Source: a virus (Duplodnaviria > Heunggongvirae > Uroviricota > Caudoviricetes). Taken from it: a DNA stretch of 64,000 bases. Positions within the stretch are counted from its first letter, which is position 1; each line of letters begins with the position of its first letter. The stretch lies in the IMG/VR virus record IMGVR_UViG_2585427757_000006; one strand, 5' to 3'. Positions 61,384-64,000 of the stretch are shown one piece after another. The translations under genes and the position numbers were made by a program. The notes beneath the pieces were generated by a model. That model ran no database searches. It was not told the origin of the DNA and saw only the letters and a program-made list of their open reading frames with translations.

Positions 61384-61726
61384 GTTTTCTTATTGGTGTT
61401 ATTATCGCAATAACGCATAGGCGAAAAAGGATTTTATTCCGGTGAATGTGGTTTTGGCAGTGAGTTTTCAGGTTCAGTACCGAGTACACTTTTTACATTA
61501 TTCTGATTTAGTAGCCGAAGGTGGCTGGTGGGCAGAATAATCATCTCCCCGAAAACCTACTGAAATCGATTGTGACCCGTTGGCTGTCTGGCACAATTAC
61601 GCTGTAGCTGGGCATTCAGAGGGAATCCAGCGGTAAGTAAGTTCGCCTGCACGTGAGCGCCTCTCTTCTTCCCGCACATTACAGGTGGGTAGCCGCAACT
61701 CTCCCTCTCGCTATACCGGTACGCCA

Positions 61727-61857
61727 CCGTTCCTGAACCGGCACCGAGCCTTTTCCCGAAATCCACACAGGCAACTCGACCGTTTCCCTGAAAATCCCCA
61801 GCCGTTCCCCGAAGGCAACCCAGCCGTTTCTGTAGCGGGATGCAGCCTTTTCCCTGT
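61727..61857. repeat. iteron-like array B: 6 direct copies of CCGTT(T)CC(C)(T)G motif, mostly 22-bp spacing
   Basis: Copies at 61727, 61749, 61780, 61802, 61824, 61846. Confidence 0.75.
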
Positions 61858-61986
61858 ATGGACCGAAGGCTGACCGTAGGGGTGTTGTCAGCGCCAATGA
61901 TATAAGACAGTAATTCACCATTTGGATTGTCCGCTCCACCCAACATGTTGTTTCCTTAAGGTTCCTACACCACAAAGGGAACACTC

Positions 61987-63159
61987 ATGCTGAGCAGAGA
62001 GGATTTTTACATGATAAAGCAAATGCGCCAGCAAGGTGCGTATATTGTTGATATTGCCACTCAGGTTGGTTGCTCTGAGCGGACCGTCAGACGGTACCTG
62101 AAATACCCGGAACCTCCGGCCAGAAAAACACGCCACAAAATGGCCAAACTCAAGCCGTTCATGGACTATATAGATATGCGTCTGGCTGAGAACGTCTGGA
62201 ACGGCGAGGTCATCCTGGCGGAAATCAAAGCGATGGGTTATACCGGTGGCCGTTCCATGTTGCGCTACTACATCCAGCCCAAACGTAAGATGCGGCCATC
62301 GAAGAAAACGGTTCGCTTCGAAACTCAGCCCGGTTACCAGCTACAGCATGACTGGGGAGAAGTTGAGGCTGAGGTTGCCGGGCAACGATGCAGGGTTAAC
62401 TTCGCGGTTAATACGCTGGGGTTCTCACGTCGCTTCCATGTCTTCGCGGCACCAAAGCAGGATGCTGAACATACCTATGAGTCACTGGTCCGCGCCTTTC
62501 GCTACTTCGGCGGTAGCGTGAAAACCGTGCTGGTCGATAACCAGAAAGCCGCAGTGCTGAAAAATAACAACGGGAAGGTGGTGTTCAACTCCGGGTTCCT
62601 GCTGCTGGCCGATCACTATGGCTTCCTGCCACGGGCCTGCCGTCCACGAAGGGCCAGAACCAAAGGTAAGGTTGAACGGATGGTGAAATACCTCAAGGAA
62701 AACTTCTTCATCCGGTACCGCCGGTTCGACAGCTTCGCCCATGTTAACCAGCTACTGGAGCAGTGGATGGCTGACGTTGCTGACAGGCGAGAACTTCGCC
62801 AGTTCAGGCAGACACCGGAACAGCGCTTCACGCAGGAACAGGAGCATCTGCATCCGCTGCCGGGTACGGACTTCGATACCAGCTATTTCGATATCCGTCA
62901 TGTCTCCTGGGATGGCTATATCGAGGTTGGCGGGAACCGTTACAGCGTACCGGAAAGCCTGTGTGGCCAGCCGGTATCAATACGGATCTCGCTGGATGAT
63001 GAACTACGGATCTACAGTAATGAGCAACAGGTAGCATCGCATCGTCTCTGTTCGGCTGCATCCAGCTGGCAAACCGTGCCGGAGCATCACGCCCCACTCT
63101 GGCAGCAGGTCAGTCAGGTGGAACACAGACCGTTGAGTACGTATGAGGAGCTGTTGTGA
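61987..63159 (+). CDS. istA: IS21-family transposase IstA
   Basis: 390-aa ORF; N-terminal HTH, DDE-type core; classic istA-istB arrangement. Confidence 0.9.
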
Positions 63160-63953
63160 TGCATGAACTGGAGACACTGCTGAGTCGTCTTAAAATGGAA
63201 CATCTGGGCTACCACGTTGAAAGCCTGCTGGAGCAGGCGGCCAAAAAAGAACTGAACTACCGCGAGTTCCTGTGCATGGCGTTGCAGCAGGAATGGAACG
63301 GGAGGCATCAGCGCGGTATGGAGTCCCGGCTGAAACAGGCCCGCTTCCCGTGGGTCAAAACGCTGGAGCAGTTCGACTTCGGCTTCCAGCCAGGTATCGA
63401 TCGTAAGGTCGTCCGTGAGCTGGCCGGGCTGGCGTTCGTGGAGCGTAGCGAGAACGTGATCCTGCTGGGTCCGCCCGGTGTGGGTAAAACGCACCTGGCA
63501 GTCGCTCTCGGGGTAAAAGCGGCGGACGCTGGTCATCGGGTACTGTTCATGCCACTGGATAAGCTGATCGCCACACTCATGAAGGCAAAACAGGAAAACC
63601 GGCTGGAAAAACAGCTACAGCAGCTTGGTTATGCCCGGGTACTGATACTGGATGAGATAGGCTATCTGCCGATGACCCGCGAGGAAGCCAGTCTGTTCTT
63701 CCGGTTGCTGAACCGTCGATATGAAAAAGCGAGCATCGTGCTGACGTCAAATAAAGGGTTCGCCGACTGGGGAGAGATGTTCGGCGATAACGTGCTGGCA
63801 ACGGCAATCCTGGATCGACTGCTCCACCACTCAACCACACTGAACATCAAAGGAGAAAGCTACCGATTAAAGGAAAAACGCAAAGCGGGAGTGCTGGCAA
63901 AAAACGCCACGCCAATCAGTGATGATGAAATGGCGGAAAGCGGACAACATTAA
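63156..63953 (+). CDS. istB: IS21-family ATP-binding helper IstB
   Basis: 265-aa ORF; Walker [12 protein letters not shown], Walker B LILDEIGY (AAA+/DnaC-like). Confidence 0.9.
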
Positions 63954-64000
63954 TGACCAATAGCGGACATTAAAAATGGCGAAAAACGGCCAATAATCTT

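Follow-up and report, generated by a model that had tools for sequence, protein, structure and literature searches.

A copy of ISEc62, a known insertion sequence that is common in E. coli, occupies the right end of the window, i.e., the whole stretch of DNA analyzed here (64,000 nucleotides of the Caudoviricetes record IMGVR_UViG_2585427757_000006). The insertion as such is ordinary. Very probably, it is a recent, simple insertion that lies beside a backbone repeat array (array B), is neutral for plasmid maintenance, and splits a cis-acting module. Comparison with related sequences establishes the identity of the element, both of its ends, the empty site, the target-site duplication, and the backbone status of array B. 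Judged by the same comparisons, the insertion is recent, and the molecule that carries it is an SSU5/pHCM2-type phage-plasmid of E. coli. In the scheme we favor, a complete ISEc62, with its istA and istB genes, would have transposed recently into a ~1.55-kb gene-free region, entering between GGGGTGT and TACGGGGG and duplicating GTGT, presumably by ordinary IstA/IstB transposition. The features discussed below are collected in Table 1.

Table 1. Features of arrays A and B, the interrupted region, and the inserted element (window coordinates).
Feature	Position	Strand	Basis or remark
Array A: one perfect and three to four weaker array B-type units, same orientation	58554..58711	+	downstream of 160-aa gene
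First gene of leftward operon, 109 aa, acidic, PHROG 7645, function unknown	61033..61362	-	
Sigma-70-like promoter, CTGCCA-18-TAAAAT, 9/12	61431..61460	-	consensus match only
129-aa mechanical ORF, starts in the IS and reads across array B	61557..61946	-	
Array B: six direct units of about CAGCCGTTTCCCGAAA, backbone, not IS	61725..61858	+	conserved phasing in relatives
Target-site duplication GTGT, left copy	61882..61885	.	empty sites; right copy beyond window
ISEc62 (IS21 family), bases 1-2115 of 2125	61886..64000	+	RefSeq-named copies and comparison with full-length copy L002
Left terminal inverted repeat TGTCAGCGCCAA	61886..61897	+	right counterpart TGTCAACGCCAA, 11/12
Subterminal repeat TGTCCGCT	61928..61935	+	counterparts AGCGGACA at 63939-63946 and 63962-63969
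istA, 390-aa transposase; HTH, rve DDE core, Mu-transposase C-terminal domain	61987..63159	+	
istB, 264-aa helper AAA+ ATPase	63159..63953	+	IstB_IS21

The original prediction of an IS21-family element is borne out by the IstA and IstB domains, the identity to ISEc62, the ends, and the duplication. Positions 61887-64000 are 100% identical to copies called ‘IS21-like element ISEc62’ by RefSeq, whose istA is labeled ‘IS21-like element ISEc62 family transposase’; the name ISEc62 used here follows from this annotation of 100%-identical copies. One of these copies, full-length and carried by another plasmid (L002, NZ_CP024237.1), is 2,125 bp long, inside the ~2-2.7 kb typical of the family, and shows one mismatch in 2,115 positions against window positions 61886-64000. 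This copy has the ends TGTCAGCGCCAA and TGTCAACGCCAA (11/12), subterminal TGTCCGCT repeats, and a 4-bp duplication, AGTT. The 5'-TG...CA-3' ends of IS21-family elements are present as TGTCAGCGCCAA on the left, in the window, and as TTGGCGTTGACA on the right, in L002 and in a sister contig of the window (L033), the two being 11/12 complementary. The subterminal TGTCCGCT repeats, which we take to be putative IstA-binding sites, lie at position 43 counting from the left end and, counting from the right, at 42 and 65 (in L002). Both genes are intact, consecutive, and on the same strand, as expected of the IS21-family gene pair, and the istA stop and istB ATG overlap by one base (TGATG). IstA matches the HTH_23, rve, and Mu-transpos_C_2 domains, and IstB matches IstB_IS21 across the full profile (E 1e-87). 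ISEc62 is multicopy in E. coli, with matches in 2,521 of 5,426 genomes.

The left boundary is set by IS-free relatives, which are collinear with the window through 61885 and then continue with TACGGGGGATAAAATC. The true end of the element is the T at 61886, where TGTCAGCGCC begins, so that the predicted end near 61887 was right to within 1 bp. Similarly, the distance to array B, first put at about 30 bp, measures 27 bp from the last unit (ending at 61858), and the array lies outside the element: in IS-free relatives, it is part of the backbone and keeps its phasing. In close IS-free relatives, the empty site reads GGGGTGT followed by TACGGGGGAT, and in contigs L001, L017, and L024, GGGGTGT followed by TACGGGGG; the IS-free site is found in these three and ten more contigs. 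Over 16.5 kb, L024 and the window are 99.93% identical, but the site in L024 has no IS; plasmids of the pSTEC388_1 type are likewise near-identical and IS-free. As predicted, the element runs past the window edge, its right end lying 10 bp beyond 64000, and the missing last 10 bp are GGCGTTGACA. The window edge is a contig end, and L026 (GCA_000700445.1), a contig from NCBI that shares the insertion, stops at the identical base. Two sister assemblies have contigs that break within this IS copy. L026 has the same left junction and 9 differences in 18,640 bp with respect to the window.

A simple insertion predicts that a read through the right end would give CTTGGCGTTGACA-GTGT-TACGGGGG and run on into the backbone (TACGGGGGATAAAATCAGG, TACGGGGGATAAAATCAGGAGTTGAATAAATACG). 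The right end and flanking repeat that had been sought beyond the window were recovered from the IMG/VR sister contig L033, where the junction reads GGCGTTGACA-GTGT-TACGGGGGAT (GGCGTTGACA-GTGT-TACGGGGG). With the uninterrupted site reconstructed from IS-free relatives, as the original prediction had suggested, GTGT is seen once in empty sites; it precedes the IS in the window and follows it in L033. This duplication, read from the junctions of sister assemblies, falls within the 4-8 bp of the IS21 family; it holds for the lineage, the left junction being taken from the window and L026 and the right from L033 rather than from one molecule, and the IS copies of window/L026 and L033 differ by one or two bases. 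The empty sites in relatives and the L033 right junction together argue for a simple insertion with a 4-bp GTGT duplication. The original prediction had allowed for a boundary further left that would take in array B, or for a missing right end or duplication; the boundary excludes array B, and both a matching right end and GTGT are present.

The same junctions bear on two other accounts of the contig end. The IS end could mark a larger rearrangement, such as an IS-mediated deletion or inversion or a composite transposon, as might be suspected from the window and L026 contigs, which stop within the IS, and from a right side that is never on the same molecule. However, L033 begins inside the same IS, crosses its right end into GTGT-TACGGGGG, and then follows the expected backbone for 2.1 kb, matching L001 (from position 8883) at 99.7% identity. 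The two copies of the 4-bp repeat agree exactly, and the contigs add up to a whole plasmid (40,035 + 77,547 bp minus a 2,033-bp overlap, i.e., ~115.5 kb, which fits a ~113-kb plasmid plus the IS); a rearrangement is very unlikely. An assembly artefact, in which a multicopy IS was misjoined to a plasmid contig, would be in keeping with the abundance of ISEc62 in E. coli genomes and its place at a contig end, but its probability is negligible: the left junction is identical in an independent NCBI assembly (L026), and the right junction in the IMG/VR contig L033 has a perfect 4-bp duplication of empty-site sequence. No target duplication would arise from a chimeric join.

The insertion is found in this lineage alone, and its site is shared only with L026 and L033. 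No locus covering at least 80% of 61500-62300 was found in 72,556 plasmids, 50,697 phage records, and 5,426 complete E. coli genomes, and the exact left-junction pattern had zero matches in viral, genome, and metagenome contigs. The predicted right-junction pattern had one match in viral contigs (L033) and none in genome or metagenome contigs. Exact-protein look-up of the 109-aa neighbor returned IS-free contigs only, and that of a rarer 154-aa protein returned L026, with the IS, and L024. IS gain or loss is a reported difference among otherwise near-identical SSU5-group elements (bioRxiv 10.1101/2025.09.12.675607).

Array B consists of five to six units of 16 nt each, starting at 61725 (weak), 61746, 61777, 61799, 61821, and 61843, with start-to-start spacings of 21, 31, 22, 22, and 22 bp. 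At lag 22 its self-match is 45/88, which no other place in the 64-kb window reaches (mean 22, sd 4.3), and the array has the phased direct repeats of an iteron-controlled origin, for which sites of 17-22 bp phased at about two helical turns are expected. The spacing is kept in Salmonella pHCM2, phage SSU5, and Enterobacter relatives. Across a whole 113-kb relative, the motif is confined to arrays A and B, which bracket the leftward operon. Array B and the adjacent tract had no Rfam match near any gathering score, and the minus strand of array B gave no stable fold (z-score -0.46). A role of the minus-strand GGGAA repeats as a CsrA sponge was considered and dropped, given no Rfam match and a low RNA-seq signal in LF82.

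The original prediction took array B for a putative origin, where a nearby insertion could alter replication control, and this part was not upheld: a P1-type oriR/repA with unrelated iterons lies ~27 kb from array B, outside the window, in close and distant relatives. This replicon, located through the annotation of Cyrano, contains DnaA boxes and GATC repeats, and its repA is flanked on either side by iterons (TATGCTGTCAGCGGT in NZ_CP022167.1; CTATAGTGGWT in Cyrano), and no array B motif of at least 14 bits was found near repA. Going by sequence, then, array B is not the plasmid replication origin. The opposing view, that it supplies the iterons of a plasmid origin or of a copy-control locus and that the insertion perturbs replication control, draws on five to six direct repeats of ~16-22 bp with 22-bp phasing and a second array 3 kb off, a layout formally like P1 incC/incA. 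Apart from the true oriR/repA elsewhere, it has to contend with the lack of a cognate rep gene among six ORFs tested between the arrays (five without a Pfam match, or with PHROG families of unknown function only). Around the array, GC is 0.51-0.59 across and beside the repeats, with no AT-rich unwinding element, and the one DnaA-like 9-mer, AAATCCACA (7/9), is not conserved in relatives. Along the same lines, the array core is common to plasmids of different replicon types, IncFIB and rep_cluster_488, and the RepA of pECOH89 is just 48% identical to that of pLF82 (PMC3999498). We hold the plasmid-origin view to be highly improbable, and the label should be avoided in annotation.

Among ~20 window ORFs searched against Pfam or NCBIfam, no initiator was found, the matches being ParA, ParB_N, and a FljA-like repressor; the scanned window proteins fall in clusters all named ‘hypothetical’ and in PHROGs of unknown function. 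Whole-plasmid cumulative GC skew is monotonic, with extremes at repA, and is silent on array B. Also against an origin role, in 55 Yersinia plasmid records, the pMT1 plasmids gave no blastn match to the array B region, though the homologue of the 160-aa gene is kept. The insertion would be neutral for plasmid maintenance because the P1-type repA/oriR lies elsewhere.

A single sigma-70-like promoter is predicted for the leftward operon. It is separated from the IS by 425 bp, with array B in between, and is physically untouched. At the left junction, a TATAAG inside the IS end has no -35-like hexamer 17 bp upstream, and no hybrid promoter was found there. The 129-aa ORF that reads from the IS across array B is most likely not a gene, since RefSeq annotates no array-spanning ORF in the E. 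coli, Salmonella Saintpaul, and Klebsiella relatives; an uninterrupted version is annotated in Cyrano (CYRAN_104) and has a low RNA-seq signal.

What the IS divides is a gene-free region of ~1.55 kb that is conserved in E. coli, Salmonella, Enterobacter, and Klebsiella and in the virion-derived phage SSU5, with a mean nucleotide column identity of 73% across genera. A ~90-bp block that is conserved across genera starts at the insertion point, and further right, outside the window, lies a gene-free tract of ~800 bp with an extreme G+T strand bias, GC skew of up to +0.55, and GTAATGGC-type repeats. The last unit of array B resembles these tract repeats (family D2). We propose that array B belongs, with the conserved tract on its right, to one cis-acting module, which the IS has split. 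Of 361 related plasmids, about two have the region interrupted and nearly all keep it whole; such rarity, together with the conservation, would fit selection against interruption. A hairpin in the conserved block is weakly supported and terminator-like in E. coli only.

The insertion may be more than neutral. By parting array B from the conserved block and the G+T tract, it could have disabled a cis-element of the lytic mode (such as a lytic origin or early-region control), and the element would then survive as a plasmid and be impaired as a phage. The conservation of the 1.55-kb region across four genera and phage SSU5, its interruption in only ~2 of 361 plasmids, and the failure of the non-phage relative pMT1 to match the array B region all lean this way. 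So do the likeness of the last array B unit to the tract repeats, by which the IS may split one repeat system, and the T4-like UvsW, UvsY, gp32-like SSB, and RNase H that the phage-plasmid family encodes. On the other side, the conserved block yielded no promoter-like site, the RNA-seq signal of the tract is at the floor in the LF82 lysogen (i.e., in the lysogenic state), and a second IS21-family element and an IS1 are also inserted in the gene-free region of otherwise intact plasmids. On balance, a consequential insertion of this kind seems to us unlikely. A narrower form, in which the module, made up of array B, the invariant ~90-bp block, and the G+T tract, is a lytic-mode replication origin, possibly R-loop-primed, and the ISEc62 insertion leaves the plasmid unable to grow as a phage, would fit the UvsW/RNase H/UvsY/gp32-like gene set and is, in our estimate, quite doubtful.

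As found, the event matters little in itself, being one more copy of a common E. coli IS in a phage-plasmid. Its useful by-product is that a 1.55-kb non-coding module, conserved in the SSU5 family and so far unannotated, is now mapped; the natural insertion and the two nearby IS insertions could serve as ready-made mutants for the function of this module.

Compared with known systems, the element in the window is ISEc62 in its gene pair, ends, subterminal repeats, 2,125-bp length, and 4-bp duplication, and nothing in it differs. Its close relatives are IS21 and IS100 of Yersinia pestis; the istA segment has ~86% nucleotide identity to the IS21-family copies of two phages, fiAA91-ss and one of Yersinia pestis, the latter copy being probably of the IS100 type, judging from its host. 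The subterminal repeats are multiple terminal repeats of the sort described at IS21-family ends. Arrays A and B share with the P1 replicon the incC/incA layout, with phased direct repeats in two clusters around a gene block, but differ from it in having no intervening rep gene, AT-rich unwinding region, or conserved DnaA box. The λ ori is an iteron-type phage origin, and T4 oriF/oriG and ColE1 are R-loop origins. In contrast to these origins, no initiator, promoter, or transcript was identified at the module; any likeness to λ ori on the one hand, and to oriF/oriG and ColE1 on the other, would lie in the UvsW, RNase H, UvsY, and gp32-like SSB that the phage carries and in a phased array that adjoins a strand-asymmetric tract.

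The right end of the window carries a copy of ISEc62, by its sequence an already known insertion sequence. The original prediction of an IS21-family element at this position is borne out by the domains of IstA and IstB and by the 100% identity of 61887-64000 to many plasmid copies named 'IS21-like element ISEc62' by RefSeq. Among these, the copy on plasmid NZ_CP024237.1 is complete at 2,125 bp, with ends TGTCAGCGCCAA and TGTCAACGCCAA and a flanking 4-bp duplication, AGTT; subterminal TGTCCGCT repeats lie at position 43 from its left end and at positions 42 and 65 from its right. 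Window 61886-64000 differs from this copy by one base. The left end, TGTCAGCGCC, had been placed near 61887, which is essentially the right location, but it begins one base further left.

Features of the window and their positions
Feature	Position	Strand	Description
AT-rich ORF	6075-6983		302 aa, no Pfam match; precedes the tRNA genes
Four tRNA genes	7162-7719	minus	Ser-tga, Thr-tgt, Tyr-gta, Asn-gtt
FljA-like gene	55752-56354		full-length 'repressor of phase-1 flagellin' (PF03614, E 2.5e-84), 2.2 kb left of array A
AT-rich gene-free stretch	58150-58520		adjoins array A; several AACGCGC/GCGCTT repeats and hairpins
Inverted repeat	58434-58468		CATAATCACA...TGTGATTATG, within the AT-rich gene-free stretch
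Array A	58554-58711		weaker array of the array B unit
26-nt direct repeat	59391-59416, 61524-61549		81% identical, same orientation, both opening with Chi octamer GCTGGTGG
Promoter-like match	61460->61431		between array B and the first gene of the leftward operon
Array B	61725-61858		units starting at 61725 (weak), 61746, 61777, 61799, 61821, 61843
ISEc62	61886-64010		end projected, past the window edge
istA	61987-63159		IstA transposase: HTH, rve, Mu-transposase C-terminal domain
istB	63159-63953		IstB AAA+ ATPase (IstB_IS21, E 1e-87)

The window edge falls at a contig end. The NCBI contig GCA_000700445.1 (40,035 bp), found through an exact match to a rare 154-aa protein encoded nearby, has the same left junction, shows nine differences from the window tail over 18,640 bases, and has its last base exactly at window 64000; short-read assemblers stopped at this multicopy IS. 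Six of the nine differences cluster at 58117-58141, a hairpin and T-run after ORF 57874-58104, and may reflect a hairpin loop that varies or flips, or else an error in assembly.

The uninterrupted site was rebuilt from close IS-free relatives and reads ...GACCGTAGGGGTGT|TACGGGGGATAAAATCAGG... in NZ_CP022167.1, in L017, in the Logan contig L024 (ERR3970546), and in ten further contigs. L017 is 100% identical to the window across the 503 bp that precede the IS, and L024, without ISEc62 at the site, is 99.93% identical over 16.5 kb. The insertion junction was absent from the plasmid, phage, and complete-E. coli collections, all three of which were searched. The right junction was predicted as GGCGTTGACA-GTGT-TACGGGGG, and a search for this pattern with a variable gap matched one IMG/VR contig, L033 (77,547 bp). 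This sister contig starts within the IS at the base equivalent to window 61968, has a single mismatch to the window across 2,033 IS bases, reads ...CTTGGCGTTGACA|GTGT|TACGGGGGATAAAATC... at the right junction, and beyond it tracks NZ_CP022167.1 from position 8883 with 99.7% identity. The right end and flanking direct repeat that had been sought are therefore in hand: the two junctions define a 4-bp duplication, GTGT, a sequence that the empty site has once. The two contigs sum to ~115.5 kb (40,035 + 77,547 - 2,033), which fits a ~113-kb plasmid plus the IS. ISEc62 was seen at this site in this lineage only, and the insertion is simple, recent, and ordinary.

The 3.9 kb left of this locus are 95-98% identical to DNA in over 180 non-mobilizable plasmids from E. 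coli and Shigella, each about 95-120 kb in size and, as a group, annotated with tail, capsid, and terminase genes, DnaB-like helicase, primase, ParB-like proteins, metG, and nrdAB. Escherichia phage Cyrano matches the same DNA, and Salmonella phage SSU5 matches a related stretch. Together, the plasmid annotation and the phage matches indicate that the window is part of an SSU5/pHCM2-type phage-plasmid.

Array B (unit consensus CAGCCGTTTCCCGAAA) lies 27 bp from ISEc62, close to the ~30 bp originally claimed, and the IS21-family insertion beside it is confirmed. Its lag-22 self-match of 45/88 is the window maximum, and a matrix built from its units reaches at least 13.8 bits in the window only within array B and at one array A site (58593); in a complete 113-kb relative and in Cyrano, scores of at least 14 are confined to the two arrays. 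Plasmids of Salmonella Saintpaul and Enterobacter hormaechei, as well as S. Typhi pHCM2, preserve the phasing (22, 31, 22, 44) even though identity in the flanking DNA is only about 68%, and two units are retained in Klebsiella. Array B is therefore a real, conserved backbone feature outside the IS, and probably a protein-bound one; it has no Rfam match and its RNA fold is not unusual. The AT-rich stretch adjoining array A resembles a cluster of operators or terminators lying between the convergent operons.

The gene-free interval spans about 1.55 kb in IS-free relatives (NZ_CP022167.1, 8364-9927). A ~90-bp block nearly invariant across genera, GTTACGGGGGAT..TTGAAT..TACG..GCGA..CCCCTC..CTTATA, starts at the ISEc62 insertion point and extends rightward from it. 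Right of the block is a ~800-bp gene-free tract (NZ_CP022167.1, 9020-9800; equivalent DNA just past window 64010), whose plus strand has a G+T of 0.65-0.73, a GC skew up to +0.55, and an AT skew down to -0.6. Its composition and most of its sequence are kept in E. coli, Salmonella, Enterobacter, and Klebsiella. Phage SSU5 also carries the tract, which contains neither a sizeable conserved ORF nor an Rfam match. Its repeats include TGTATGGAGTAATGGCAGGT and a tandem 31-mer, one family resembling the last unit of array B. In LF82 lysogens, RNA-seq signal is at the floor for the ORF annotated across the tract and low for its counterpart across array B (PMC9928086, S1 Table). ISEc62 splits this conserved non-coding module. 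The gene to the right of the module varies among relatives, i.e., 132 aa (NZ_CP022167.1, 9928-10326), 396 aa (L025, 17941-19131), 244 aa (L023, 13419-14153), and 186 aa (L007, 3854-4414), and resembles a variable accessory slot next to a cis region that is conserved.

Across 361 plasmids matching the region, there were only two extra match places. NZ_CP083480.1 carries IS1 in this region, and in L024 an IS21-family element other than ISEc62 occupies 16654-19234, 130 bp to the right of the ISEc62 target (2,581 bp; IstA 513 aa, IstB 248 aa; ends TGCGTATT.../...AATACGCA; 5-bp duplication ATAGG). As far as plasmid carriage goes, at least, insertions in this region are tolerated, yet they are rare. 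The only promoter-like match of the leftward operon is 425 bp from the IS, and sequence inspection revealed no hybrid promoter at the IS junction. Nothing indicates an effect of the insertion on plasmid replication; it may affect the role of the conserved module, e.g., in the lytic mode, which, if true, would be the only route to real interest.

The reading of array B as a putative plasmid origin is not supported, given that in relatives a P1-type oriR/repA locus lies ~27 kb away, outside the window, and that no rep gene lies between the arrays. Six ORFs tested there include five without a Pfam family, and otherwise matched only PHROG families of unknown function. The array B core is common to plasmids of different replicon types, IncFIB and rep_cluster_488, and the RepA proteins of pECOH89 and pLF82 are only 48% identical (PMC3999498). 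By blastn, none of the 55 Yersinia plasmid records with a homologue of the 160-aa gene matches the region of array B. Cyrano has an annotated RepA (CYRAN_63) with CTATAGTGGWT iterons on either side, DnaA boxes, and GATC clusters; neither this iteron nor TATGCTGTCAGCGGT, that of NZ_CP022167.1, is similar to array B. The octamer TGTCAGCG, common to TATGCTGTCAGCGGT and the ISEc62 left end, is probably a chance overlap. The PLSDB gene table lacks the NZ_CP022167.1 replicon, since this locus runs across the start of the record (L003 29109-end and L004 1-1700). There, DnaA-like boxes, a GATC-repeat block, and five iterons are followed by an ORF of about 365 aa (counted from its likely start), by position the repA gene, and then at least nine more iterons, i.e., the layout of P1 oriR.
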